Shown here: positions 1 to 58,435 of the stretch, piece after piece
Layout of the letters: every line of letters begins with the position of its first letter
Numbering within the stretch: position 1 is the stretch's first letter
From: an uncultured Candidatus Binatia bacterium
Lineage (GTDB): Bacteria > Desulfobacterota > Binatia > Bin18
NCBI GenBank assembly: GCA_965214755.1
Contig: OZ243979.1
Location: 1,923,251 to 1,987,250, forward strand
Reading direction: 5' to 3'
Length of the DNA stretch: 64,000 nucleotides
Position numbers and translations under genes: made by a program
Notes under the pieces: model-generated
Told to the model about the DNA's origin: nothing
The model's input: the letters and a program-made list of their open reading frames with translations, nothing else
Database searches by the model: none

Positions 1-1623
1 GGCTCACGCTATATGGTCGTCACCAAGGGCGCGCTGACCAACGCCATTACCACCTCGAATTCCGGCGGCTTCTGGGGGCCGGAGATGAAATTCGCCGGCT
101 ATGACATGATTATTCTGGAGGGCAAGGCCGCGCAGCCGTCCTATCTGTGGATTTATGACGACCGGGTGGAACTGCGCGATGCGACCCACCTGTGGGGTAA
201 AACGGTCTGGCAGACAGAAGAAGCCCTGCGCGCCGAGCTCGGCGTGCCGGATACCATCATTGCCAGCATCGGCCCGGCCGGAGAAAACCTGGTGCGCTTT
301 GCCTGCATCATGAACGACCTGCACCGGGCCGCGGGCCGGTCCGGCGTGGGCGCGGTAATGGGCTCCAAGAATCTCAAGGCCATTGCCCTGCGTGGGACCG
401 GCGGCGTGTCTCTGGCGGACCCGCAGGCATATCTGGAAGGCCAGTGGGCTATGAAGGAAAAGCTGCGCCAGTCGCCCGTGACCGCCGAGGGTCTGCCCAT
501 GTACGGCACCGAAGTGCTGGTCAACGTGATTAACGAGCACGGCGCCCTGCCGACGCGTAACCACCAGCAGACCGTCTTCGATGAAGCCGAGAACATCAGC
601 GGCGAAACCCTGACCGAAACCCGTCTGGTCGCCAATAAGGCTTGTTTTTCCTGCACCATTGCCTGCGGGCGGGTCAGTACCCTGCCGGGCGAAGCTTCGT
701 CGAAATACTCGGTCACCACCAATCCGCAGAACTGGAAAATCGCCGGCGAAGGCCCCGAATACGAAGCGGCCTGGGCCATGGGCTCGGAATGCGGTGTGGG
801 CGACCTAGACGCGCTGATCAAAGCCAACTGGTTGTGTAACGACCTGGGTATGGATTCCATCAGTTTTGGGGCCAGCGTGGCTGCGGCCATGGAGTTGTTC
901 GAGAAGGGTGCGGTCAGCCAGGACCAGACCGAGATTCCGCTGGAGTTCGGCAGCGCCGAAGCCCTCATCGCTATGGCCGAGAAAACGGCCTATCGGCAGG
1001 GATTTGGCGATGCCGTGGCCGAAGGTTCCAAACGCATGACCGAAAATTTCGGTCGGCCAGAGTTCTTCATGGGCGTCCGCGGTCAGGAGTTTGCCGCGTA
1101 TGAAGCCCGCGCCATTCAGGGCATGGGCCTGGGCTATGCGACCTCCAATCGCGGGGCGTGTCACTTGAAAGCTTATACGGTTGCGGCCGAAATTCTGGGC
1201 CTGCCGCGGCAGATGGACCCGCGCGCCACAGAAGAGAAGGCCGAAATTACCAAAATCTTTCAGGACGCCACCTCGACCGTCGACGCTACCGGCCTGTGTC
1301 AATTCCTCACCTTCGGGGTTGGTCTGGAAGAGATGCTGCCCCAACTGTCGGCAGCCACGGGCGTGCCGTATACGCTAGAAGAACTGGTCCACATTGGAGA
1401 GCGTATCTGGAACCTGGAGCGACTGTGGAACGAACGGGCGGGCTTTACCGGCAAGGATGACACCCTGCCCAAGCGGATTCTGGAAGAGCCCATCCCGTCC
1501 GGTCCGGCCAAGGGCGAGGTCAACCGACTGGGTGAGATGCTGCCCGAGTATTACGAACTGCGAGGCTGGTATAAGGACGGTAAAATCTCCGAAGCAAAGA
1601 AGAAAGAGCTGGGGCTGGAGTAA
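1..1623 (+). CDS. Aldehyde:ferredoxin oxidoreductase (tungsten AOR family), 5' partial at the window edge
   Basis: 536-aa ORF open to position 1. AOR-family domains 2/3 are recognisable (e.g. GMDSISFG, NRGACHLK, EYYELRGW). A FAD oxidoreductase and a MoaD-like gene follow, as in aorBCD-type operons. Confidence 0.85.
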   Translation, partial: GSRYMVVTKGALTNAITTSNSGGFWGPEMKFAGYDMIILEGKAAQPSYLWIYDDRVELRDATHLWGKTVWQTEEALRAELGVPDTIIASIGPAGENLVRFACIMNDLHRAAGRSGVGAVMGSKNLKAIALRGTGGVSLADPQAYLEGQWAMKEKLRQSPVTAEGLPMYGTEVLVNVINEHGALPTRNHQQTVFDEAENISGETLTETRLVANKACFSCTIACGRVSTLPGEASSKYSVTTNPQNWKIAGEGPEYEAAWAMGSECGVGDLDALIKANWLCNDLGMDSISFGASVAAAMELFEKGAVSQDQTEIPLEFGSAEALIAMAEKTAYRQGFGDAVAEGSKRMTENFGRPEFFMGVRGQEFAAYEARAIQGMGLGYATSNRGACHLKAYTVAAEILGLPRQMDPRATEEKAEITKIFQDATSTVDATGLCQFLTFGVGLEEMLPQLSAATGVPYTLEELVHIGERIWNLERLWNERAGFTGKDDTLPKRILEEPIPSGPAKGEVNRLGEMLPEYYELRGWYKDGKISEAKKKELGLE

Positions 1624-1631
1624 ACCAGGCA

Positions 1632-2771
1632 ATGAAAAGTTTTTCAGCGGTCAGGCGGCGGACAGGGGTATTGGTCGGTATCGGAGTACTGTTGCTCATG
1701 GCCGGGTGTGGGCCGACGACCCGGGGTCATGGGGGTAGCAACAGGGTAGACCTGCTCAAGCCACAGACTCGTCAGTCTACTCTTGGTAAGCTTGCAAGTG
1801 GGATAGGCAATTTTGCATTCAACACCATTATGCCAAGTGAAGTCAAGCGGGCATTTGCCCCCCGCCAAGGTAATAACATGGCACAGATCACTAATCAGTT
1901 ATCTCAGATTGGTGAAGGTCTGACCGAACTTCATGAGTTGGCCGAACAGTTATATGCAGACCAGTCCCTAGACCCATCTGAGCGAGAGGAGAGGCGTAAA
2001 AAAGCAGTATTCCGGCTCGCTACGATGCGGAATCATTTTAATAATCTGCGTGTGCAAGCTGCCATGGCTCAAGGTGTAAATTATTCGGATGGTGCATGGG
2101 AATCAATTGCAGATGTGTTTGAGGATGTTGGTCAGAGATATCGTATCAGTAGTCAGTCGGTTAAAGACCTGGGTAAAGAATTGGAGGGGAGGACGGTAGT
2201 CTATCCTGGCCAGGGTAATCCATATGATGATCCCGAACAACGGCACCATAGGTGGACCTACCGTGATGGTGAATGGATACGTTTCACAAGCCCAGGTGAG
2301 GATACTCAATCTTCATTTGGAATGCTCGATGATAGATTTGTTATGGCGTTAGCATCTGCGAAGGCCCTTTATACGCATACTCTGACTGAGAAGGAAGCAA
2401 AAGACCTTTCTGCTAGAGGGGTCCCTGTGTTGGGTCGAACTGGTCCACGGCATGATGATGGCACGCAGATGTATGTATTCGATATGCGGAATAGTGCTGT
2501 CCGTGCTGAATTTTTTACTGGCCAGGAGGATCGAGGTCCGTCTATATCTATGGAGCCGACCACCGGACAGTCTTCTCCTACACCTAGTATTCAAGGGGAG
2601 CCAGAGTCAGAATATCAAGCTATCAGTAGTCCTGGTGATTTTAATGGTAATGCTATAAATGTGGCTCAACGTGTTGCTGTTACTGACCCGCAAAAGACGA
2701 GAACGGTAACCGATATAACGGCAAAATCACGACTTACCGAGACGGGCGTGTCCGCCACAAGGGGAAGGTGA
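1632..2771 (+). CDS. Hypothetical lipoprotein (signal peptide plus lipobox LLMAGC), lower GC than neighbours
   Basis: 379-aa ORF. N-terminus MKSFSAVRRRTGVLVGIGVLLLMAGCG resembles a lipoprotein signal. No recognisable domain. AT-richer codon usage than flanking AOR genes. Confidence 0.5.
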   Translation: MKSFSAVRRRTGVLVGIGVLLLMAGCGPTTRGHGGSNRVDLLKPQTRQSTLGKLASGIGNFAFNTIMPSEVKRAFAPRQGNNMAQITNQLSQIGEGLTELHELAEQLYADQSLDPSEREERRKKAVFRLATMRNHFNNLRVQAAMAQGVNYSDGAWESIADVFEDVGQRYRISSQSVKDLGKELEGRTVVYPGQGNPYDDPEQRHHRWTYRDGEWIRFTSPGEDTQSSFGMLDDRFVMALASAKALYTHTLTEKEAKDLSARGVPVLGRTGPRHDDGTQMYVFDMRNSAVRAEFFTGQEDRGPSISMEPTTGQSSPTPSIQGEPESEYQAISSPGDFNGNAINVAQRVAVTDPQKTRTVTDITAKSRLTETGVSATRGR

Positions 2772-2825
2772 ACGACAAGAAGTTCAAATACGAAAGTTGG
2801 TAGAGTCCTGGAAGGAACACACGTC

Positions 2826-4256
2826 ATGGCACAACACATCATTATTGGAGGGGGACCGGCCGGGGTGGCCGCGGCGGAAACGATCCGGGCAACCGCAGGC
2901 CCTGAGGCGAAGATTACGCTCATCTCCAATGAGCCAGCCTACTCGCGCATGGTCCTGCCCTACTACTTGGCGAACGACATTCCGGAGCGGCATGTGCTGA
3001 CCGGAGACGCGGCCTATTTTGGACAACACGGCATTACATCCGTGTTGGGCCAGGTCGAGAAAGTCGATACCCAGGCCCGCACCGTCACACTTGGTGACGG
3101 CTCAAGCCACGCCTTTGATACCCTCCTCATCGCGACCGGCTCTTCGGCCCAGCGTCCGCCCATTGCCGGCATCGACCAGGAAGGCGTGTACACCTTCTGG
3201 ACGCTCGAAGACGCAAAACAGGTCATGGCGAAAGCACAGGGAACGCCCAAGGCGGTGCTCATTGGCGCCGGCTTTATCGGTTTTATCGTCTTGAACGCCA
3301 TGGCCAAGCTGGGCTGGAACCTCTCGGTGGTCGAAACCGAAGCCCAGGTCTTACCGCGCATGCTCGACGCCACCGGCGCGCAAGCGGTCGAAGGCTGGCT
3401 GACCAGCCAGACTGTAGCCGTTCATACCGGCGCGCGAGTCCAAAGCATTAGCCATGAAGGCGAGGCTCTCAGCCTGTCGCTGAGCAACGGTGCTAGCCTG
3501 AGTGCGGATATCGTCATTTTGGCCACGGGCATTCAGCCCAACCTGGGCTTTCTCAACGGCTCCGGCATCCACGTTGACGGTGGCATTGTGGTTGACGACC
3601 GCATGCAGACCAATATCCCCGGCATCTATGCGGCCGGTGATGTTGCCGCCGGGCCGGACCTGCTGAACGGCTCGTCCGCAGTGCACGCGATTCAACCAAC
3701 GGCCGTGGATCACGGTCGGATTGCCGGCGCAAATATGGCCGGCCAAGAGACGCACTATCCGGGCAGCCTGCTGCTCAACGTGTTGGACGTCATCAATCTG
3801 CACTGCGCCAGCTTTGGCCAGTGGCGGACGGATGCGAATGAGGCGATCACCACCGTCTGGAACCCGACGCGCCCGCTTTATCGCAAATACGTCTGGGACG
3901 GCGATCGCATGGTCGGGGCGCTGTTTGTTGGACCGATTGACGATGTCACCATGCTAAACGATGTCGGTATGGTCAAAGGGCTCATTCAGACACGGCAAGC
4001 CATGGGAAACTGGGCGGACTACGTCAAAGAGAACCCGACCGATGTACGCCGTGCCTATGTCGCCACCGGAACCGCGCACAAACTGGTCAGTCACACCCTC
4101 TTGGGCGCGCCGGCCACAGCGCGCGCCTATCGGGTGGACGGGAAGACACCCCCGGCCTGGCAGAAAGGTTCGCACGCCCCGCTTATCGGCTCTCGCCCGG
4201 ACGCGCTGGATACGCTTCCACGGACACCGACACCAGGCATTGAAAAGGGTGAATAA
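2826..4256 (+). CDS. FAD-dependent pyridine nucleotide-disulfide oxidoreductase (AorC-like electron-transfer subunit)
   Basis: N-terminal GGGPAG dinucleotide-binding motif and a second Rossmann (GAGFIG). Sits between the AOR and MoaD-like genes. Confidence 0.8.
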   Translation: MAQHIIIGGGPAGVAAAETIRATAGPEAKITLISNEPAYSRMVLPYYLANDIPERHVLTGDAAYFGQHGITSVLGQVEKVDTQARTVTLGDGSSHAFDTLLIATGSSAQRPPIAGIDQEGVYTFWTLEDAKQVMAKAQGTPKAVLIGAGFIGFIVLNAMAKLGWNLSVVETEAQVLPRMLDATGAQAVEGWLTSQTVAVHTGARVQSISHEGEALSLSLSNGASLSADIVILATGIQPNLGFLNGSGIHVDGGIVVDDRMQTNIPGIYAAGDVAAGPDLLNGSSAVHAIQPTAVDHGRIAGANMAGQETHYPGSLLLNVLDVINLHCASFGQWRTDANEAITTVWNPTRPLYRKYVWDGDRMVGALFVGPIDDVTMLNDVGMVKGLIQTRQAMGNWADYVKENPTDVRRAYVATGTAHKLVSHTLLGAPATARAYRVDGKTPPAWQKGSHAPLIGSRPDALDTLPRTPTPGIEKGE

Positions 4257-4259
4257 TCG

Positions 4260-4505
4260 ATGCAGGTTAGCATCAAACTCTTTGCCAATCTTCGGAAAAA
4301 ACTACCCAAAGGCTCTATGGGGAAAGCCACGCTTGATCTCGCGGATCAGGCAACGATTAATGATCTGATTCATCACCTTGACATTCCTCTCGACCTGGCC
4401 CAAATGGTCCTGGTCAACGGTGAGCAAACCCGGGCGTTCGATCAGGCGCTTACGGATGGCGACCAGGTCAGCATCTTTCCGCCGGTGGCCGGTGGGAGCG
4501 AGTGA
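4260..4505 (+). CDS. MoaD/ThiS-family small beta-grasp protein (AorD-like)
   Basis: 81 aa. C-terminal PPVAGGSE, i.e. a GG motif followed by a 2-aa tail. SD sequence upstream. Follows the FAD subunit. Confidence 0.7.
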   Translation: MQVSIKLFANLRKKLPKGSMGKATLDLADQATINDLIHHLDIPLDLAQMVLVNGEQTRAFDQALTDGDQVSIFPPVAGGSE

Positions 4506-6336: not shown

Positions 6337-7278
6337 TTAATTTCCCGACACGCTATCGACCTGTCCGAACAGTGCGGCCAGTCGCTCACAGTCCACCAAC
6401 GGCAGCGGTTCTTTGAGCAGCGCGGTTATATTTTCTTTGAGATGCTCGACGCTACCGGTGCCGGTCAGGACGCTATCCATACCGGGCTCATGCCGGCAGT
6501 AGCGGTAGGCGGCCTCGGGGATAGTCTCGGCTTTTCCCGTGTCAGTCAGAAAACCAAGCAGGTCCGGTGTCTCACACAGGGCGGGGTCGACTTGGTTTCT
6601 ATCTCTGAGCTCGGCCAGAATCTTTTTCAGATGAGCCGGTCGGCTGAGCGCGTTCCGCACGGCGAACATGCCCATGGTCCCCATGTTCTTGGCCTGGGTG
6701 TGCGGAAACACCCGCTGACGGGCAGATTGGTTGAGCAGATTGAAGCCGACCATCACTACATCCCAGCAGTCATCTTCCAGAGCCCGTTTGAGCATGGCGT
6801 GCTGCGGGTCGGGAATAAACGCCTCGGTCACGCCAAGAAAGCGGACCTTGCCCTCCTCGCGCAACCGGGCCAGCACGGGAGCGAACGTACCGTGCGCATA
6901 TTGATATTGCTCGGGTCGCACCCCGTGGAGATAGAACACGTCCACATAGTCGGTCTGTAGGCGTTTGAGGCTGTGTTCCACGCCACGCCGCAGCTCTCCG
7001 CTTGGGTCGTCGCCCTCAGGGGCCGGACACAGCTTTTTAGTGGAAATCACCACTTGGTCGCGGCCAACGTCCTGTATCGCCTTGCCGACAATACGCTCCG
7101 TCCCATACGCCTCAGCCGTATCGATGAGGTTGATACCCAAGTCTAAGGCGTGCCTGACAACGCTAATGGATTCCTGCTCGGTTTTGCCCGTTTTCTGTCC
7201 CAGCCGGCTGTGGCCGCCGCACCCAAGGCCGGCCACACTGACTCTGAGGCCGGTCCGTCCGAGGGTCGTGTATTGCAT
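6337..7278 (-). CDS. Aldo/keto reductase
   Basis: MQYTTLGRTGLRVSVAGLGCG, IDTAEAYG and similar AKR motifs. Start taken at MQY rather than the far-upstream M of the listed ORF. Confidence 0.8.
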   Translation of the reverse strand: MQYTTLGRTGLRVSVAGLGCGGHSRLGQKTGKTEQESISVVRHALDLGINLIDTAEAYGTERIVGKAIQDVGRDQVVISTKKLCPAPEGDDPSGELRRGVEHSLKRLQTDYVDVFYLHGVRPEQYQYAHGTFAPVLARLREEGKVRFLGVTEAFIPDPQHAMLKRALEDDCWDVVMVGFNLLNQSARQRVFPHTQAKNMGTMGMFAVRNALSRPAHLKKILAELRDRNQVDPALCETPDLLGFLTDTGKAETIPEAAYRYCRHEPGMDSVLTGTGSVEHLKENITALLKEPLPLVDCERLAALFGQVDSVSGN

Positions 7279-7548
7279 GGCTCTCTTCTCCGGGCAGTGC
7301 CCGCCCGTCCTCCAGATCGCACTCTGTTTCATAGGGGCTAGCGGACCGTATTTCAACACCTTGAGTCCTGCTCCAAGAGCCTGCTCCGCCGCCCATACCG
7401 TATTTGATGCAAGCACCCTCACGGGTAGCCCGTCCGGACTCTCTATGTCTATACCAACCGTCAGCGGCGTCCTCTTGCTTTTCGGTCGGTCCGGCGCTAT
7501 GGCGAGGAGAACGGTTGAGTCATCCACACCAAAGGAAGGGAGTCACAC

Positions 7549-7971
7549 ATGGCGAATAAAGATTTTGAGGTCAAACAAATTCTCAAGGCATATCGGCAAG
7601 GGCTGATCTCAGACGAACTCTTTGCAGAACAGATGCAAGAACTTGGGGGCAACGGCGCGACGGGCGGGCTTGATGTGGCCAATGTTTTTGACCACCGGGG
7701 GAGTGAGGTCGCTAAGCTACAGGAAACTCCGCTGAGTCAAACCGTGGCCTTCACGCTGCCGGCCGGCTATAGCAACGACACCGAGAATACCCACAAGGGC
7801 GACCAGATCATTTATGTCGTCGAGGGCTGTGCAACCGCCAAGGTGTCCGGCAAAGAGCAGGACATCAAAGCCGGTGATGTGCTCATGATTCCGGCCGGCG
7901 CTCCACATACGCTCCGGACCGGGAACGAATCGTTCTTTGGCTTTACGATCCTGGCGCCGCCTGAACTGTAG
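7549..7971 (+). CDS. Cupin domain protein with SHOCT-like N-terminal segment
   Basis: 140 aa. Cupin motifs (G(D)xxxIP...H). N-terminal KAYRQGLISDELFAEQMQEL. Confidence 0.6.
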   Translation: MANKDFEVKQILKAYRQGLISDELFAEQMQELGGNGATGGLDVANVFDHRGSEVAKLQETPLSQTVAFTLPAGYSNDTENTHKGDQIIYVVEGCATAKVSGKEQDIKAGDVLMIPAGAPHTLRTGNESFFGFTILAPPEL

Positions 7972-8025
7972 CCACTCTCGGACGACCTCTTCGGCAATAC
8001 CGGGGGGCGCAGCCTGCTGCGTCCC

Positions 8026-8649
8026 CTACGCCAACGCCTGGATCACCTCATCCGACGTACACACCGTCGTCAGCCCTCCCAGGGCTGCGCCTAGAATCAC
8101 CCCATGGGCTTCTTCGGTCGTAGCCGCACAGCAATCTTCGGGAATGAAGATATGATAGCCACGGTCAGTCCCGTCCCGGGCTGTGCCTTCGACGACGCCA
8201 TCTGTGGCGATGCCGGTCAGCACCAGGTGGGTGCGCCCTTGGGAATTGAGAATGGCTTCCAAAGGACTGGCGTAAAAGGAACTCACCCGCGTTTTGGTAA
8301 TCACCAAGTCTTCCGGCTCGGGGGTAAGGTCGACATGGATATCAGCTCCCCACGTCCCGTCCTGCAAGGCTTCCGTTTGCTTGATCACCTGAAAGACCTT
8401 TACGTGCTCCAGTAAGTCGGAGTAATCCGACCGGTAGGCATGTCGAACATGGATGATCGGCACCTTAGCCGTCCTCCCCGCGGCAGCCAGGGCGCTGATA
8501 TTTCCCAAGATGTTCTTTTCCTTAATAAGCCTAGGCATAGCCCCGCCAGTGAGGTGCCCGCCCAATTTACCGTCTTCATGCACAATATCGTTTTGGCAGT
8601 CCATCACCAGAATAGCGGTTTTCTCTTTTGGCAACGTGAACTCACTCAT
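8026..8649 (-). CDS. Isochorismatase-family cysteine hydrolase
   Basis: 207 aa. The D...K...C catalytic arrangement typical of isochorismatase-like hydrolases (ILVMDCQND, GIATDGCV-like). Confidence 0.8.
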   Translation of the reverse strand: MSEFTLPKEKTAILVMDCQNDIVHEDGKLGGHLTGGAMPRLIKEKNILGNISALAAAGRTAKVPIIHVRHAYRSDYSDLLEHVKVFQVIKQTEALQDGTWGADIHVDLTPEPEDLVITKTRVSSFYASPLEAILNSQGRTHLVLTGIATDGVVEGTARDGTDRGYHIFIPEDCCAATTEEAHGVILGAALGGLTTVCTSDEVIQALA

Positions 8650-8764
8650 ACGACTCTCCTCCTTTTTGCGCCCTATAGTGTATCCGGCGCGTTCACTTTC
8701 ACTTCATATCCATATCACATCGTTTCAGATTGACAGACCAAGACGTCCTCTATCTAATCGCGGC
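8646..8764. repeat. 119-bp direct repeat copy A (promoter/RBS/ATG of the isochorismatase gene)
   Basis: About 90% identical to 11164-11282. Contains GGAGGA and the ATG (minus strand) of the isochorismatase gene. Confidence 0.85.
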
Positions 8765-8936
8765 AGTCGCGCTGGGTCTCGGCGCGGACCTGCTGGAGCG
8801 AGGGCTCGGGCAGGAAGATATTCTGATGGGTTTGCACTTTGACGACATCCGAGCGGCTATCTGAGATAGCTGACTGGTGAGCTGCGCAACTCGCCAGGAG
8901 CAGGGCGAGGAGTATACAGAGCGGCACTTTTTGCAT
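8754..8936 (-). CDS. Small putative lipoprotein
   Basis: 60-aa ORF from internal Met. MQKVPLCILLALLLASCAAHQ carries a lipobox-like LASC. Confidence 0.35.
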   Translation of the reverse strand: MQKVPLCILLALLLASCAAHQSAISDSRSDVVKVQTHQNIFLPEPSLQQVRAETQRDCRD

Positions 8937-8951
8937 AGACAGTTTCCATCC

Positions 8952-9005
8952 TGACGCGGCGGAAGCGGGCAATGTGTTGACGCAGAGCAAAGGAATCGGA
9001 GGAAT
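8952..9005 (+). promoter_or_regulatory. Repeated promoter (TTGACG) plus RBS (GGAGG) plus GTG module, copy 1
   Basis: Near-identical to 9594-9669, apart from a 23-nt insertion in copy 2. A TTGAC box, then GGAGG followed 7 nt later by GTG. Confidence 0.45.
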
Positions 9006-9115
9006 CCTGGTGGGGCCTAGCTCATGGCGACGTGTCGGGGAGTTCAACCGGAAAGGCCGTTGTTCGTCGCTCCCGACGTTGACCCACCATCATTTTATTT
9101 GGAGGATGAGACATC

Positions 9116-9586
9116 ATGAAACAATGGAAGGACTTGGCCCCGCATCAGGTGAGCCGCGTGGGAAGAGCACTTGTGGCGGACGAACTCAACCGCCGGGGTT
9201 GCCCTGGCCACCCTGACAAACACCACGCGCGTGGCTGTTGTGGCCATGCATCCGGATACTAGCCGTACGGTTAACATTCTGGTCAAGACCAAAAGATTCA
9301 AGGTGTGGCAGTGGAATATCGACAAAGCCGAAGCCGAGCAGCAGGCTCCGGAGGACGATTTCCTCATCCTCGTGGACCTTCAGCCGTCGGAGCCAGCCTA
9401 TTATATCGTGCGGCTCCGGGATGCCGCCAAGAGGAAGGTGGAGGTTCATAACGCCTGGCTAAAGAGCATCGGGGGCCGCCGGCCCCAACACTCCAGACTC
9501 CAAGCACACCGCGATCCCGGTGGAAGATGTGGAAGCGGGCAAGGATGCCTGGGGCATACTGGGTGTGATTCCAGACGCGGATTGAC
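9116..9586 (+). pseudogene. Hypothetical protein gene, apparently frameshifted at G/C runs
   Basis: MKQWKDLAPHQVSRVGRALVADELNRRG continues in the -1 frame as ...VAVVAMHPDTSRTVNILVKTKRFKVWQWNIDK.... A plausible C-terminus (...IPVEDVEAGKDAWGILGVIPDAD*) lies in a third frame. Confidence 0.35.
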
Positions 9587-9593
9587 GAAGAGC

Positions 9594-9669
9594 GAAGCGG
9601 GCAATGTGTTGATACAGAAAAGATGGGGATATCATACGATGCAAAGGAATCGGAGGAATCCTAGTGGGG
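9594..9669 (+). promoter_or_regulatory. Repeated promoter/RBS/GTG module, copy 2, driving the 9664 ORF
   Basis: TTGATA...GGAGGAATCCTAGTG. The GTG at 9664 is the start of the secreted ORF. Confidence 0.45.
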
Positions 9670-10614
9670 ATCTCCGTGTTTTGGGGAAGCAGCGTCTGGG
9701 CGCAAACGACCGAACGGGGCGTGATTGAGTCCCCGTCTGCCTTTGTCAGCGGGATCGGCTTTATTTCTGGCTGGAAGTGTAACTCCAACGATATTACGTT
9801 GAAGGTGCTATGTAGCCCCTATATTCACGATCTCGATCCCGCCCAGAATATGTTGCGTTCTGACACCAGAGAAGTGTGCGACGGAGAAATAGACAATGGC
9901 TGGATTATCCAGGTCAACTGGGATGACTGGGTTGGGTGTACCAGAGTTGATGCACTGGACAACGGGCAACAATTTGCTTCTCGGAAATTCGCAGTCGGAG
10001 AAATAGGGGATGGGTTCATACGAGACCAAGAGGGGACGCAGATCAAGGTGCTTGGCTTTCCGTCCCCAGATCAAGTGACACATTTTGCCTGGTCTACCGC
10101 AACGCAACATTTTGAGGGCATGTACACCGCTGACTGTGGTACCGACGAGGCGTGTCCTGGCAGTGAAGGCCAGAATACTCCTGCTCCGGACAATCCCCCC
10201 GTACCCTATCCCGAAATGCAGATCATTGACGGCGCGTATGCCGGCGATCAGGATTTGGTCCAATACAAAGGGATGTTGGCCCTTCCTCCTCCCACATACC
10301 AGGAAGCTCTGGTCAGGGGTGATAGTGTGACCTGGTACAGCTCCTTTTCCTTCTCCATGATCTTTGAGCCAGAGGCATGGATCGCAACACACGAAGTTGG
10401 AGAAGCCGAACGCCTCATATCCAAAAGAGATTTATCTGAAAGGCTTGGGGCAGTAGGGAAAATTTGCACCAGTACGCCTCTGCTGCATGAAACCGGCCAT
10501 GTATGGGTTTTCAACCTGACTGGTGTGGGCGGGGAGATCACCATCTATGACGGAGAAGAGACGGAGAAGACGACGATTTTTATGCGGAGACACGAGTCAA
10601 CAGGCCGGACCTGA
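9664..10614 (+). CDS. Secreted hypothetical protein (GTG start), SGIGFISGWKC motif; possibly continues by frameshift into 10551-11123
   Basis: 316 aa. N-terminal hydrophobic segment. Low GC. Paralogous motif shared with ORF 49045-49440. The frame-0 ORF is open from 10551 and overlaps the 3' end. Confidence 0.45.
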   Translation: MGISVFWGSSVWAQTTERGVIESPSAFVSGIGFISGWKCNSNDITLKVLCSPYIHDLDPAQNMLRSDTREVCDGEIDNGWIIQVNWDDWVGCTRVDALDNGQQFASRKFAVGEIGDGFIRDQEGTQIKVLGFPSPDQVTHFAWSTATQHFEGMYTADCGTDEACPGSEGQNTPAPDNPPVPYPEMQIIDGAYAGDQDLVQYKGMLALPPPTYQEALVRGDSVTWYSSFSFSMIFEPEAWIATHEVGEAERLISKRDLSERLGAVGKICTSTPLLHETGHVWVFNLTGVGGEITIYDGEETEKTTIFMRRHESTGRT

Positions 10615-10718
10615 CCTATGAAGGCGGGGAGAGTATTAAGTATTTTATAAACAAAGACACGGCAGCAATTGGATTTAAGATTGTACCACACAACCTAAAC
10701 CAGGCAGGGGGTGGCTGG

Positions 10719-11123
10719 TTGGATGCAATAAGAGGAAATGCACGCTGCGATGGCACCCAGGGCCGCCAGGGAGACTGGGCGGTTCGAGCTTGTGAAGAAG
10801 TGATAAAAACGAGAGATGCCTGGTTTGCAAAAGTTTTGTTCCCCAACCAAGGGCGCGGGCCGTGGAGACAGGTCTCGGGATTCCACCTCACACTCAGACC
10901 CGGGCATATTTTCCGGGATGCCCAATCCTGTGTAAGCATAGAGGGCCTGAATACTTCCACAGACATCCCCTGGCCGCATTCCTCTTTTATTACCGATCTC
11001 ACCGGCACCGGCAAACTGGAAATCGTTTTAGCTTCCAAGCCACAATACAATGCCTGGCGTGAAAGGGACGACCTCTCTCTTTTCCTCACTCCAAAATTAG
11101 AATTAGGCTCTGTTGTTGATTAA
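10719..11123 (+). CDS. Hypothetical protein, or C-terminal continuation of the 9664 gene
   Basis: 134-aa ORF. Its frame is open upstream to 10551 without an ATG, which suggests a frameshifted single gene. Confidence 0.3.
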   Translation: MDAIRGNARCDGTQGRQGDWAVRACEEVIKTRDAWFAKVLFPNQGRGPWRQVSGFHLTLRPGHIFRDAQSCVSIEGLNTSTDIPWPHSSFITDLTGTGKLEIVLASKPQYNAWRERDDLSLFLTPKLELGSVVD

Positions 11124-11163
11124 GAAGGGAGTGCGCCCAGGCCTGGGCGTCTATCCCCGCGTG

Positions 11164-11282
11164 TCATGCGACCCTCCTCCTTTTTGCGCCCTATAGTTTA
11201 TCCGGCGCATTCACTTTCGCTCCCTATCAATATCATATCGTTTCAGATTGACAGACCAGGACATCCCCTATCTAATCGCGGC
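11164..11282. repeat. 119-bp direct repeat copy B
   Basis: Matches 8646-8764. Retains the GGAGGA and ATG of the isochorismatase 5' end, followed by only a 15-codon ORF. Confidence 0.85.
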
Positions 11283-11284
11283 TG

Positions 11285-12586
11285 ATGAGAGAGCCAGGGT
11301 CCTTGGACGACCTCAAGAGCGAGGACGGGAGTGCAGACCGCGGCGAAGGCATCTTCTATGGCTGGCTGATTGTCGGCGTCCTGTTCTTTATCTCTATCAT
11401 CGACGGAGGGTTCACCTATACCTTCTCGACGTTTCTGAAGCCGCTCACCCAGGAGTTCGGCTGGTCACGGGCCGAGACCGCCACGGCGTTCTCCCTGTAC
11501 TTGCTGGTTGCCGGCCTGGTCCTGCCCGCCTGGGGCTGGCTTATTGACCATATTGGTGCCCGCTGGGTCTTTCTGCTGAGTGCCCTCATTGACGGCGTCG
11601 CCCTGCTTCTGCTCAGCACCGTCCACAGCCTGCCCGGCTTCTATGCCCTATATCTGCTTTTAGGGGTGGGACTGGCCGGCATCGGACCCATGCCCGTGGG
11701 GAAGGTCATTACCCAATGGTTTGTGGCCAAGCGGGGTCTGGCGATGGGCATCGCCCTGGTCGGGGCGAGCGGTGGCGGGCTGGTCCTCGTCCCGCTGTGC
11801 GGTTTTCTGATCGCCGAGTTTAGCTGGCGGGTGGGCTATCAGGTCTTGGCCGGCCTGTCCCTCTTCGGCATGCTGCCCCTGGTCTGGTTCTTTGTCGTTA
11901 ACAGCCCACAGGAAAAGGGCCTCAAACCCTTGGGACAGGATTATTCGACAGTACGTCCCACGCGGCTGGAACCCGAGCCGGAGCAGGACGTGCAGGACTG
12001 GACCCTCAGACAGGCACTGTCCACATCAACATTCTGGCGCCTAGGGGTCGCATTCTGTCTGGGGCTGATGGCCGGGGGAGCAGTGCATGCCCACCAGGTC
12101 GCGTTTTTTCAGGATGCCGGGTATAGCCTCGAGTCTGCTTCAACGATTACCGGCATCTCTCTGGGCATGAGTATGGCCGGGCGGTTTCTGGCAGGTTGGG
12201 TCAGCGAACACATCCGCTACCCCCACGCCATCCTGGCTGGGTGTCTGTGCATGCAGGCGATCGGCATTGGAGCGTTACTCTTTCTGGAGAGTCTCGGGTT
12301 TTGGGCGATCACGCTGTTCGTGTCGCTCTTTGGACTCGGCTATGGCGGCATGATTGTGCTGTGGCCCCTGATCGTCGGGCATAATTTTGGTCGGCGGGCT
12401 TTTGGGGCCATTGCCGGTGTACTGGGGACGTTGGGACTGAGCATTGGCGGCGCACTGGGACCCATTATTGCCGGCGTGTTATACGATAACACCGGCAGCT
12501 ATGACTGGGCGTTTCTGTCTTGCGTCGGCGCATTTTTGGTGGGCGCGGGGGCCGCAGTCGTAGCGCCAGAGCCACAGGCTACGTAG
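11285..12586 (+). CDS. MFS transporter (oxalate/formate antiporter-like OFA family)
   Basis: 433 aa, 12 predicted TM helices. MFS signature arrangement. Confidence 0.8.
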   Translation: MREPGSLDDLKSEDGSADRGEGIFYGWLIVGVLFFISIIDGGFTYTFSTFLKPLTQEFGWSRAETATAFSLYLLVAGLVLPAWGWLIDHIGARWVFLLSALIDGVALLLLSTVHSLPGFYALYLLLGVGLAGIGPMPVGKVITQWFVAKRGLAMGIALVGASGGGLVLVPLCGFLIAEFSWRVGYQVLAGLSLFGMLPLVWFFVVNSPQEKGLKPLGQDYSTVRPTRLEPEPEQDVQDWTLRQALSTSTFWRLGVAFCLGLMAGGAVHAHQVAFFQDAGYSLESASTITGISLGMSMAGRFLAGWVSEHIRYPHAILAGCLCMQAIGIGALLFLESLGFWAITLFVSLFGLGYGGMIVLWPLIVGHNFGRRAFGAIAGVLGTLGLSIGGALGPIIAGVLYDNTGSYDWAFLSCVGAFLVGAGAAVVAPEPQAT

Positions 12587-16183: not shown

Positions 16184-16791
16184 ATGAAACTCTCACAGCC
16201 CCGCATCACCCCACTTGCAGCTGAAGAATGGACGGACGAACAACGCGCTTCACTTGAGGTCCGCTCCCGTGCCGGACACGTCTATAACGTCGTTGGCACG
16301 CTGGCTCGGCATTGGGAGGCCTCGAAAAAATTCCAGGTCTGGGCCTTCCACATCATGGGCGAGACCTCGACTCTGGTTCCCAGAGAACACGAGTTATTGA
16401 TATTGCGTATCGGTTGGCTGTGTCAGGCCGAATACGAGTGGGGCCAGTGTGATTTTCGGTAGAGAAGCCGGGCTGATCGGTTGGCTGTGTCAGGCCGAAT
16501 ACGAGTGGGGCCAGTGTGATTTTCGGTAGAGAAGCCGGGCTGACGGATGAAGAAATCGCACGGATTAAAGAGGGCCCGGACACGGACGGCTGGGACCCGT
16601 TTGACGCCACCCTGCTGCGCGCCGCAGATGAACTGCACGCAGACGCATTTATCAGCGACGAAACCTGGACGGCTCTGAGCGAGCGCTATACGACCCAGCA
16701 ACTCATGGACGTGGTCTTCACCGTCGGCCAGTACAATATGGTGTCCATGGCGCTCAATTCCTTTGGCGTCCAACTCGACATGGCCCAGTAG
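16184..16791 (+). pseudogene. Carboxymuconolactone decarboxylase (CMD/AhpD-like) family gene split by a 67-bp tandem duplication
   Basis: ORFs 16184-16462 and 16516-16791 are the N and C halves of a CMD-family protein (...RIGWLCQAEYEWGQC / VIFGREAGLTDEEIARIKEGPD...). A perfect 67-bp duplicate lies between them. Confidence 0.7.
16409..16542 (+). repeat. Perfect 67-bp tandem duplication (2 copies)
   Basis: 16409-16475 is identical to 16476-16542. 67 mod 3 = 1, so the duplication frameshifts the CMD gene. Confidence 0.95.
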
Positions 16792-56452: not shown

Positions 56453-56517
56453 AGGCAGGTAATAGATTTATGTTGCAAAGGTGAAGGCCTAACCCCTTGT
56501 TTATTTTTGACGATGTA

Positions 56518-57066
56518 TTACGTGAGAGTTCCCTCGAAGGGAAAATTGTCAAAAACTAATTTGGCAAGAACGTATATGCCCTGGTAGTCGTACTTCCGCC
56601 CTAATTTCGGTTCCCAATATCTCCCATGTGCCAACCAGTGTCTATATTTGAACGCGCCTCTCAAGTCAGAGAGGATACTGGACGCCACAGACGAGTTATC
56701 CTTCCATGCCGAAAAGATGTCGTCCTCTAAGGACACGCGTATTCCCTTTTGTTTGTGAATATCTCGGAGAGCTCTTGATAGGTGATCTTTTCTTCTCTTG
56801 TAGCAACGTTGCAAAAAATCAACACGAAACGCAGCTTCTAGGGCAGCAAGGACATTCATGGCTGAATTGTGATCGTGCTCTTCAAGAGTAACGCGCATTT
56901 CATTATAGATCTCGTCCAGAGTGTAACCGAAGAAGCGAACCTCATAGCGTGGGTTAATAGTGGAAAAATAATTTCTGATCGATGCCGCGATATCTTCATA
57001 ATATTGATTGATCTCAGAGATCTCGAGGTTCTCACCAGAGAAACTCACCCGCACCAGTCTACCCAT
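56518..57066 (-). CDS. Hypothetical protein with an Rx4H (RHWLAH) motif, possible HEPN-like; low-GC island
   Basis: 182 aa. Overlaps the upstream gene by 8 nt. No confident family assignment. Confidence 0.4.
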   Translation of the reverse strand: MGRLVRVSFSGENLEISEINQYYEDIAASIRNYFSTINPRYEVRFFGYTLDEIYNEMRVTLEEHDHNSAMNVLAALEAAFRVDFLQRCYKRRKDHLSRALRDIHKQKGIRVSLEDDIFSAWKDNSSVASSILSDLRGAFKYRHWLAHGRYWEPKLGRKYDYQGIYVLAKLVFDNFPFEGTLT

Positions 57067-57598
57067 TTACAACTTCCATCATTGCCGAGTAAAAAGACTC
57101 TTCTTCCAGTTCTATATATTTAATGTTGGGGGGGGGGGTCGCTATCTTCCACGCCCATTCGGTAATAGACGGTTTTGCCTCTTGAGTAGGTAGCTCTTCG
57201 CCCGGACCCCTTACGCGAATGCTTATTTTCGGTCCTGACGAACTCTGAGGCACGAGGACAAACCTTACTGTTCCCCGCGGACCGTTCATGTCCACTCTTC
57301 CCTTAGCACCGATGAGGTTGGTTCCAATTGGTTCAAAGTGAATCTTGCTGCTTCCGATCGTTACAACGAGAAACTGAGCATCATAGATTCCGATGGACCC
57401 CTCATGCAATTGTCTTTTCCCGGAGTCTATCTGGACTTTTCCTTCGACAACATACTTCTGCAAAAAGCGTTTAACTCGGTTATAAAATTCATCTAGATAC
57501 TCCATCCACTCCTCAAGCTGTTTGCTCCAATCAATTTCCTGTTGGGAGGTCCATTCTGCTTGCTGGTTGACAAATTCATCAAAGAATTTACTGCTCAT
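57059..57598 (-). CDS. Hypothetical protein containing a C11 homopolymer tract (encodes TPPPN)
   Basis: 179 aa, low GC. The G11 run at 57128-57138 on the plus strand lies inside the coding sequence. Confidence 0.4.
   Translation of the reverse strand: MSSKFFDEFVNQQAEWTSQQEIDWSKQLEEWMEYLDEFYNRVKRFLQKYVVEGKVQIDSGKRQLHEGSIGIYDAQFLVVTIGSSKIHFEPIGTNLIGAKGRVDMNGPRGTVRFVLVPQSSSGPKISIRVRGPGEELPTQEAKPSITEWAWKIATPPPNIKYIELEEESFYSAMMEVVNG
57128..57138. repeat. G11/C11 homopolymeric tract inside a CDS
   Basis: 11 consecutive G (plus strand), in frame in the current sequence. Confidence 0.9.
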
Positions 57599-57784
57599 GG
57601 GAATTCCCTCTTCCTGTGGTGCACGTGGCAGACGGCATTCAGACCGGGCCGTATATTTACCCTACTAATTTCAGATATTCAGCCTATCTGTATGTTCATC
57701 AGATGGGCTCTCATACTCCTCAGTTAGCTTTACACTATCTCAGGACTTTCGAGAATAGAAAAGAGTCTTAAAGGAGCTTGGACT

Positions 57785-58354
57785 ATGAACCGACTGCTGA
57801 CACATTATTGCGTTGACGTACAACATCCCGAGGTCAGCGGCGCGGAGCATCTGGAAATGTTAAAGATTCGGGATCAATTGTCGGATGTTGAGGCAACGCT
57901 GAGCGAAGCAGAACGGCAACAGTTAGCCGAGGCCGACCGGCTGCTGGTCATGCAAGCGGAGGTCGTCTCTCGGGGTTTGCTGAAATTTCTTAACCTTTCC
58001 CAGCATCGTCAGACTACCCACATCCCACCGGAGCGGTGGTGGTATCTGGACGTTGTCCGCCATGTTCCCTATCTAGGGCAAGTCAAAAAAGCCATCACCT
58101 CTATTAAGAAAGATGTTTTCCTCACAGGTGACGTTTTACGAGTACTTAAGGGCCACTATTACAGCGACACAAAAACACCAGCGGGTGCTTCTCGTAATGC
58201 TCAGTTTGGGAAGTTCCTGAAAAGAAACGCCCTGGATTTGGGCATCATTGAAGTGGAGAGCCTTGTTCGAACTAAAGATGACGCCGGTAACAGAACGACC
58301 AACTCTAGGTGGCGAAAAAGCGACTCACGAGGAGATCGAATAGCGCCTTGGTGA
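57785..58354 (+). CDS. Hypothetical protein
   Basis: 189-aa ORF in the low-GC island. No recognised domain. Confidence 0.35.
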   Translation: MNRLLTHYCVDVQHPEVSGAEHLEMLKIRDQLSDVEATLSEAERQQLAEADRLLVMQAEVVSRGLLKFLNLSQHRQTTHIPPERWWYLDVVRHVPYLGQVKKAITSIKKDVFLTGDVLRVLKGHYYSDTKTPAGASRNAQFGKFLKRNALDLGIIEVESLVRTKDDAGNRTTNSRWRKSDSRGDRIAPW

Positions 58355-58435
58355 GCTCGATTCTGGCCATATGGAGCTTGTAGCATGGGAAGTAAGCCGT
58401 AGGGTGGCTTGCGCTCCGCTAATCCAACCTACTTC

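Follow-up and report, generated by a model that had tools for sequence, protein, structure and literature searches.

Target-site duplications of bacterial transposons typically measure 2–15 bp, and some integrase-mediated insertions, such as that of SLP1 of Streptomyces, are known to be flanked by direct repeats of about 100 nt. Insertions that result from template switching or from the filling-in of broken ends have been described chiefly in eukaryotes and, among bacteria, in experimental systems. A 64,000-nt stretch of contig OZ243979.1 (positions 1,923,251–1,987,250 of the forward strand, assembly GCA_965214755.1; hereafter the window), which stems from an uncultured Candidatus Binatia bacterium, carries an island that is enclosed by two direct repeats of 119 nt and lies between the divergent genes of an isochorismatase-family hydrolase and a transporter of the major facilitator superfamily (MFS). 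The island probably arose by an illegitimate insertion of a segment of about 2.4 kb, derived from a two-gene module (p155–p500), into the 117-bp spacer of this gene pair, which duplicated the whole spacer in the lineage of the window and its near-identical twin (L001; related genomes and contigs are designated by L numbers). Confidence in this statement as a whole is moderate, and it is higher for a derived insertion with target duplication taken by itself. Searches of the literature for sponge-associated Binatia and for long target-site duplications yielded nothing specific to this structure; the case is undescribed, and the kind of rearrangement is known and ordinary.

Duplication of an intergenic spacer

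The locus harbors a single family of long direct repeats. Its two members, copy A next to the isochorismatase gene and copy B next to the MFS gene, are identical at 107 of 119 positions (90%) and lie 2518 nt apart; their longest perfect runs comprise 24 and 22 nt. Two 22-mers of the repeat occur only at these two sites of the window, even if up to three mismatches are allowed (chance expectation 0.00). Copy A adjoins the isochorismatase gene and takes in its ribosome-binding site (RBS; GGAGGAG) and its ATG, and copy B stops 2 nt short of the MFS start codon (ATG at 11285). The same structure, with both copies and the island, is present in L001, a 12.8-kb metagenome contig in the European Nucleotide Archive (ENA) that originates from an independent assembly and another sample record and is 98.6% identical to the window over 12.4 kb, so that an assembly artefact does not account for the arrangement. 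The direct repeats that had been described in a previous, sequence-only reading of the window are therefore real.

The conserved MFS-proximal part of the repeat was used to scan the GTDB collection, with one genome per species. The scan gave 13 stretches, which lie on 13 different contigs and contain one match apiece, and nearly all of the records are titled Candidatus Binatia; several of the matching genomes are multi-Mb chromosomes and still contain only one match each. A 22-mer from the isochorismatase-proximal part was absent from the metagenome collection of the Joint Genome Institute (JGI). Eleven of the 13 matching genomes (L005–L009 and L012–L017) have a single copy; their isochorismatase and MFS genes are immediate neighbors in divergent orientation, preceded by genes for a peptidase S15, an aldo/keto reductase, and a cupin on the isochorismatase side, and followed by genes for an anthrone oxygenase-like protein and an amidohydrolase on the MFS side. 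The isochorismatase orthologues of these genomes are 94–96% identical to that of the window at the amino acid level and 91–95% at the nucleotide level. Six of these genomes have a distance of 117 nt from start codon to start codon, one has 120 nt, and the remaining four have 150–162 nt.

The 117-nt spacers align with both copy A and copy B end to end, which identifies the repeat as the complete bidirectional control region plus the ATG(A) of the isochorismatase gene. The single-copy “empty site” is the common state among the relatives; the sequence-only reading had proposed to look for exactly this adjacency, and its presence in 11 related genomes supports the insertion with a long target duplication that it had envisaged. 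The duplicated arrangement is shared only by the near-identical strain L001. The full spacer is native to both genes, and both copies are native. The opposite candidate, in which copy B is native and copy A is derived, was suggested by the more distant relatives L002–L004, where a glyoxalase gene and an unrelated upstream region precede the isochorismatase gene, and is ruled out by the spacers of L005–L017. The position is occupied in L002–L004 by either a glyoxalase gene or a 6.3-kb stretch of small genes. The spacers of about 159 nt (L006, L007, L015, and L016) are set apart from those of 117 nt by a hairpin segment of about 42 nt (CTCTGTCGYGCC...GRCAGAG). No hairpin motif at fixed spacing was found across the loci, and a looser search recovered the motif only in the spacers of about 159 nt and in L026.

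The MFS-facing end of the spacer contains a TTGACA/TCTAAT block that is invariant beside the MFS gene in all relatives aligned (L002, L003, and L005–L017). The MFS start codon is located 8 nt past TCTAAT, without a Shine-Dalgarno sequence, and this configuration is conserved in all of the aligned relatives. The block is probably a near-consensus promoter that gives rise to a leaderless or nearly leaderless mRNA. A scan for consensus promoters and terminators found nothing in the repeat; it missed the block because the –10 box TCTAAT has a C at position 2, where the scanner requires an A, and the promoter call is therefore based on conservation. A search of the repeat against Rfam at a permissive threshold yielded only a sub-threshold match to the S4 leader (20.9 bits vs. 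a gathering score of 34.7; E = 0.4). Because the single-copy genomes offer no other upstream space for the isochorismatase gene, its promoter presumably lies within the 117 nt as well.

These results change the roles that the sequence-only reading had assigned to the two copies. The repeat does include the predicted promoter, RBS, and start codon of the isochorismatase gene, but it is really the whole divergent spacer, which serves both genes. Likewise, copy B is not an orphan promoter remnant as a whole, because it carries the conserved, presumably working MFS promoter; only its isochorismatase-facing half is orphaned, and the ORF (open reading frame) of 15 codons that starts from it was confirmed. 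The MFS-type promoter that is predicted to be without its gene is that of copy A. It points into the island, in sense orientation to p155 and p500 and antisense to a lipoprotein gene fragment (Table 1).

Table 1. Features of the duplicated spacer, the island, and the flanking genes (positions in the window)
Feature	Positions	Strand	Remarks
Isochorismatase-family hydrolase gene (left flank)	8026–8649	–	207 aa; PF00857, E 4.2e-41
Repeat copy A	8646–8764		Full isochorismatase–MFS spacer plus isochorismatase ATG(A); isochorismatase-facing part in use (GGAGGAG RBS, start codon)
Predicted orphan MFS-type promoter in copy A	8730–8758	+	TTGACA 8730–8735, 17-nt spacer, TCTAAT 8753–8758
Lipoprotein gene, 5' fragment	8754–8936	–	60 codons; lipobox LLASC; last codons (C-R-D) and stop inside copy A
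U2', stray copy of the junction between the p155 3' end and the p500 5' start	8953–9016	+	64 nt; promoter-like TTGACG, GGAGGA, GTG GGG
p155 gene	9116–9585	+	Single-base insertions at 9199 and 9483 in the window; intact (155 aa) in L001
U2, native p155–p500 intergenic region	9574–9669	+	p500 RBS and GTG start; homologous to L018 7717–7793
p500 pseudogene	9664–11123	+	About 487 codons, secreted; homologues 480–510 aa
Orphan 15-codon ORF	11122–11169	–	MTRGDRRPGLGALPS, then stop; opened by the duplicated isochorismatase RBS and ATG of copy B
Hairpin at the right end of the island	11131–11163	+	GCGCCCAGG/CCTGGGCG, then TCTATCCCCGCGTG; single copy in the window
Repeat copy B	11164–11282		Full spacer; MFS-facing promoter (predicted) in use; isochorismatase-facing half drifted
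Predicted MFS promoter	11248–11276	+	TTGACA 11248–11253, 17-nt spacer, TCTAAT 11271–11276
MFS transporter gene (right flank)	11285–12586	+	433 aa; PF07690, E 1.7e-46
Match to L018	9093–9580		94% identity
Match to L018	9596–10165		88% identity
Match to L025	9093–11143		89% identity
Match to the circular element (L023/L024)	9095–11125		91% identity

Content and origin of the inserted segment

The island (8765–11163) contains pieces of two frameshifted genes and one truncated gene, which the sequence-only reading had taken for small secreted or hypothetical proteins; its ORFs of 316 and 134 aa are the two pieces of p500. The reading frame of p500 is interrupted by an 11-nt tandem duplication (GACGGAGAAGA; 10549–10559 and 10560–10570), and a tblastn search with the p500 of a circular element (see below) covers positions 9664–10566 and 10578–11120. 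In L001, p500 is also out of frame, by a single lesion at the same site. With frameshifts in both p155 and p500, the inserted genes are now decaying. In L001, p155 is intact and the MFS gene (2538–3839) is called in two pieces (323 and 78 aa), opposite to the situation in the window, where the MFS gene is intact and p155 is frameshifted.

Both ends of the island are cut. The homologues of the lipoprotein comprise 89–110 aa and are alignable only to residues 1–60, which indicates that the ORF at the left end is a 5' fragment truncated at the junction. The last 31 nt at the right end resemble a terminator and are homologous to a region downstream of the module in L018 (9898–9928), up to ...CCCCGCGTG(T). 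Within the island, U2' matches L022 (2043–2134), L018 (7768–7793), and L020 (7493–7522) and is a patch that remains from a rearrangement inside the module. An alternative explanation of the 54-nt internal repeat at U2, a nested insertion of the same kind, is ruled out by the sequences at the home locus of the module.

There is no integrase, transposase, or other recombinase between the copies, neither in the ORF list nor in Pfam and PHROG scans of all island products, which agrees with the sequence-only reading. Terminal inverted repeats of the island are also absent; a search for inverted repeats between 7000 and 13000 gave one weak pair of 28 nt, which is unrelated to the ends. None of the island products has a meaningful match in Pfam or PHROG, and p155 has no sequence match in Pfam, PHROG, or PDB. 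The AlphaFold2 model of p155 (predicted local distance difference test score, 90.3) was matched by Foldseek to SPARDA nuclease domains, Hjc, PvuII, and I-Ssp6803I, with E values of 3e-5 to 2e-3 and a template modeling (TM) score of about 0.5, and has a PD-(D/E)XK nuclease-like fold with an alpha-beta-beta-beta-alpha-beta core. Residues E23, D47, and K57/K59 are invariant in the p155 family; the V-K-x-K segment and D81/D87 are conserved, and the residue before V-K varies (L/H/Q). Although the fold match of a confident model places p155 alongside these PD-(D/E)XK nucleases, it differs from them in the lack of detectable sequence-family membership and a TM score of only about 0.5, and its role as a nuclease is putative.

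Copies of the p155–p500 module occur in at least five genomic contexts, two of which are isochorismatase–MFS spacers. At the usual locus (L018, L019, L020, and L022), the module is located 3' of genes for transaldolase/PGI, RpiA, and DUF924, in the same orientation, and the start of p155 overlaps (L020) or closely trails the stop codon of DUF924. L020 contains a tandem duplication of the entire module, which includes 54 nt of the DUF924 3' end (6925–6978 and 9062–9115); its p500 paralogues have diverged. In L018, p155 and p500 are separated by an insert of about 245 nt (7470–7716) that resembles a miniature inverted-repeat transposable element (MITE), with terminal inverted repeats of 12 nt (GGTAGTGTCTCA / TGAGACACTACC) and a target duplication of 8 nt (AGCGGGCA). 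L021 and L025 harbor the module at two further loci. The contigs L023 (1–5902) and L024 (1–5838), which stem from two samples, are 100% identical and circularly permuted, and their ends overlap by 119 and 55 nt; together they amount to a circular element of 5,783 bp that encodes p155, p500, and a member of the MobC family (PF05713; 26.1 bits vs. a cut-off of 23.2). The element also contains an ORF with a weak helix-turn-helix signal (Rep-like?). None of the other contexts of the module shows flanking target duplications.

The core of the island (9093–11143) is 88–94% identical to the module at the DUF924 locus (L018, L019, and L022). These values equal the divergence of the orthologues of the flanking genes (91–95% at the nucleotide level for isochorismatase), which places the donor in the same or a closely related lineage and not in a distant one. 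The DNA of the island has no match in plasmid, phage, or viral collections. The foreign origin assumed by the sequence-only reading is therefore not obvious, as the module is present both at another locus of the same group and on the small circular element. Its “low-GC island” is likewise a weak characterization; the GC content of 0.545 is about 1 standard deviation (SD) below the window mean of 0.581 (SD 0.034 among windows of equal size), and 13.6% of these windows have a GC content that low or lower. Foreign DNA is more plausible in the stretch around 56500–58400, which has the lowest GC content in the window (about 0.46 vs. 0.58) and comprises three small ORFs (182, 179, and 189 aa) of no obvious identity. 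The only addition from a repeat search of the whole window is a perfect tandem duplication of 67 nt (two identical units; 16409–16542) that is unrelated to the 119-nt repeat; it splits an ORF of about 180 aa into two (16184–16462 and 16516–16791, plus strand) and is either a recent frameshifting duplication or an assembly error.

The module entered the isochorismatase–MFS spacer on at least two occasions, and a long duplication accompanied only one of them. The second case is L026, a 12.9-kb ENA contig whose flanks are about 90% identical to those of the window, with a frameshifted isochorismatase gene and a cupin gene. Here (690–4360), the left 69 nt of the spacer are followed by the hairpin segment (1340–1395) that is typical of the spacers of about 159 nt. 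The insertion starts right after this segment and consists of a BrnA-like gene, p155, p500, and a gene encoding 151 aa; on the right side, it is followed by the right 42–51 nt of the spacer and the MFS gene. No repeat of ≥22 nt flanks the insertion, about 15 nt of the target were apparently lost, and both junctions are unlike those of the window. The p500 of L026 is of the L018/L019 type (78–80% amino acid identity) and is only about 35% identical to the type carried by the circular element, L025, and the window, and L026 is not a sister to the window on either flank. A BrnA-like gene is present also in the variable regions upstream of the MFS gene in L003 and L010. Together, L026 and the variable relatives mark the MFS-upstream region as a site of recurrent gene gain and loss.

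Junctions and proposed routes of insertion

The left junction reads ...TCTAATCGCGGC up to the break and AGTCGCGCTGG beyond it. The frame of the lipoprotein runs on across the junction as C-R-D-stop, and the homologue P0192 has C-R-E. By our own estimate, the chance that spacer sequence encodes this continuation in frame is about 2e-4, and donor and target therefore probably shared the sequence TCGCGGC. This would amount to a microhomology of about 7–8 nt, and the true duplication may be closer to 111 nt. At the right junction, ...CCCCGCGTG is followed by TCATGCGAC; sequences of the L018 type continue as TGCGGGGGA, which places the right break in the hairpin loop, where donor and target have 1 nt in common. 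Functional units that are cut off at both ends, little or no homology, a templated internal patch, and the absence of a recombinase together form the signature of illegitimate recombination.

Under this scenario, a segment of about 2.4 kb that was built around a copy of p155–p500 would have been inserted into the divergent spacer without the help of a dedicated recombinase, and the duplication spans the region from the isochorismatase ATG to a point 2 nt ahead of the MFS start codon. The most likely route would be a switch of the replication template, with re-entry into the original template 119 nt behind the point of exit; alternatively, a fragment may have been ligated into a break whose long staggered ends were subsequently filled in. 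The isochorismatase gene would retain its RBS and promoter from copy A and the MFS gene its promoter from copy B, and the insertion would be tolerated because both genes kept a full control region. The redundant halves of the two copies would then be free to drift. The spare MFS-type promoter of copy A, which is predicted to be strong, faces the inserted genes and may have driven their expression, and RecA-mediated recombination between the repeats could drop the island and restore the empty site.

The differences between the copies agree with such a drift. Ten of the differences between A and B are older than the split between the window and L001, and three changes are younger (0.6% per copy vs. 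a genome-wide 0.7% per lineage). The private changes of copy A (unit positions 95 and 99) fall within the spacer of its unused MFS-type promoter, and in L001, this unused promoter has acquired a further change immediately ahead of its –10 box. Copy B has private changes at positions 55, 60, and 72 as well as 9 and 34, all in its unused isochorismatase-facing part, and one at position 103 in the spacer of its promoter. Copy A differs from the single-copy spacer of L014 at six sites, and copy B differs from every relative at 10–14 sites.

Several observations weigh against an illegitimate insertion with duplication in place. Copies A and B differ at 10% of their positions, a divergence equal to that seen between the spacers of different species (6–15 differences), and both states are found among the relatives at six of the 12 sites that differ between the copies, so that one copy could come from another lineage. 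The two flanks have different nearest relatives; the isochorismatase side (7549–8649) is closest to L007, L015, and L005 (6.4–6.7% divergence), and the MFS side (11285–12480) to L012, L009, and L008 (7.6–8.4%). This renders the locus a mosaic, with frequent recombination between lineages, which limits any inference from trees. Both boundaries of the duplication fall within 1–4 nt of a start codon, which is not expected of random breakpoints; selection sets a lower limit to the length of the duplication and does not account for the position of its ends near the start codons. The microhomology at the left end is derived from a protein alignment only. Finally, the second arrival of a module in the same spacer hints at targeting, which a purely random event would not predict.

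Some of these observations would be explained by a Campbell-type integration, in which a circle that carried the island together with a spacer copy recombined homologously with the chromosomal spacer, so that the island came to lie between two hybrid copies. Such a circle may have been a plasmid into which the spacer had been captured, or it could have been excised from a strain that already possessed the repeat–island–repeat structure. The p155–p500 pair does exist on the 5,783-bp circular MobC element, and the right part of copy A and the left part of copy B are the divergent halves, as expected for a crossover between unit positions of about 72 and about 95. The sites with both states among the relatives and the different affiliations of the flanks point in the same direction. 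In simulations, the number of shared-state sites had a probability of P = 0.004 under uniform mutation, but P increased to 0.05–0.5 once variable columns were allowed to mutate faster. Moreover, relaxed constraint on the redundant halves predicts the same A/B pattern as a crossover, and the pattern is compatible with both duplication in place and Campbell-type integration. The one circle that was recovered shows no similarity to the spacer, additional steps (capture, integration, and loss of the backbone) are needed, and the novel junctions would require that a replicon captured the spacer, which is itself an illegitimate event. A Campbell-type origin is therefore rather doubtful.

It is less probable still that the duplicated state is old and that recombination between the repeats removed the island from the single-copy genomes. 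The 12 differences between A and B, which match the range among species, would agree with an old duplication, perfect runs as long as 24 and 22 nt might suffice for a RecA-dependent deletion, and the MFS-upstream region is variable in the wider clade (L002, L003, L010, L011, and L026). However, 11 species-level genomes with two types of spacer (117 and about 159 nt) would each need a loss of their own, and the duplication is seen only in the window and its 98.6% identical twin, where p155 is intact (L001) and p500 has one lesion at the same site in both strains. An old origin would also change only the date and not the mechanism, because a duplication event is still required.

The recurrence of the module raises the question of whether it promotes its own spread. 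If p155–p500 were a self-propagating cassette, whose nuclease cuts preferred intergenic targets such as the isochorismatase–MFS spacer and whose insertion is copied during the repair of the staggered cuts, with duplication of about 100 nt, this would explain the two arrivals in a spacer of 117–160 nt, the mobilizable circle, and the presence in several chromosomal contexts; such a cassette is a highly speculative proposal. A site-specific mobile element is slightly more improbable. In this case, the repeats would be its attachment sites (attL and attR), and the integrase would have been lost or act in trans, or p155 would make the break in the target. Such an element would account for the at least five contexts of the module, two of them in the same spacer, and the fold of p155 is found also in the homing endonuclease I-Ssp6803I. 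Evidence against it is the absence of an integrase and the nature of the ends, which are a truncated gene and a cut hairpin instead of conserved termini. The insertion in L026 has other junctions, no repeat of ≥22 nt, and a different type of p500, and the module at the usual locus is embedded in a housekeeping operon, with no flanking duplications in the other contexts. A dispersed element, either MITE-like or a repetitive extragenic palindrome (REP), or an assembly artefact has nothing in its favor except the existence of two copies and is rejected, given the restriction to two copies in the window, the single match on one contig in each of the 13 matching genomes, and the same structure in L001.

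Significance and relation to known systems

The locus is a well-documented natural case in which a compact bidirectional promoter was invaded and the invasion was tolerated through duplication of the whole control region, after which the copies lost complementary halves. It is useful as an illustration of promoter duplication and subfunctionalization, of long target duplications without a transposase or an integrase, and of flexible “islet” sites in uncultured Binatia. It also draws attention to a gene pair that encodes a nuclease-fold protein together with a variable, secreted one and that is mobile among chromosomal sites and a small mobilizable circle. Of note to specialists may be the start-to-start duplication of 119 nt, the way in which the two copies drift in complementary halves, and the fact that one spacer was hit twice. 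The understanding of mobile DNA is unchanged, unless the p155 nuclease proves to be the agent of the insertions.

The island shares with transposons the direct target duplications that flank the inserted DNA but has neither a transposase nor terminal inverted repeats, and its duplication of 119 nt (about 111 nt without the microhomology) far exceeds their usual range. Integrase islands with long att repeats are similar in that a small island is enclosed by direct repeats and that the duplicate restores the function of the interrupted target; unlike them, the present island lacks an integrase, and its ends are not conserved, as the module copies of L018–L026 have boundaries other than those of the island. 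Campbell integration resembles it in the position of the insert between two direct copies and in the existence of a circular element with the same gene pair, but the known circle is devoid of spacer sequence, and no plasmid backbone is left in the island. Events of the FoSTeS/MMBIR type (fork stalling and template switching/microhomology-mediated break-induced replication) differ from the island in the length of its duplication (119 nt) and the nearly exact start-to-start span, and the mechanism proposed here is deduced from sequence. The absence of a recombinase, the location of the junctions within a gene and a hairpin, and the short or absent homology are features common to the island and to FoSTeS/MMBIR-type or filled-in staggered-break events, and the patchwork of templated pieces (U2') and the duplication of the target on both sides are further points of agreement. 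The island thus does not qualify as a transposon, an integrase-borne island, or a dispersed repeat and fits an illegitimate duplication-insertion.

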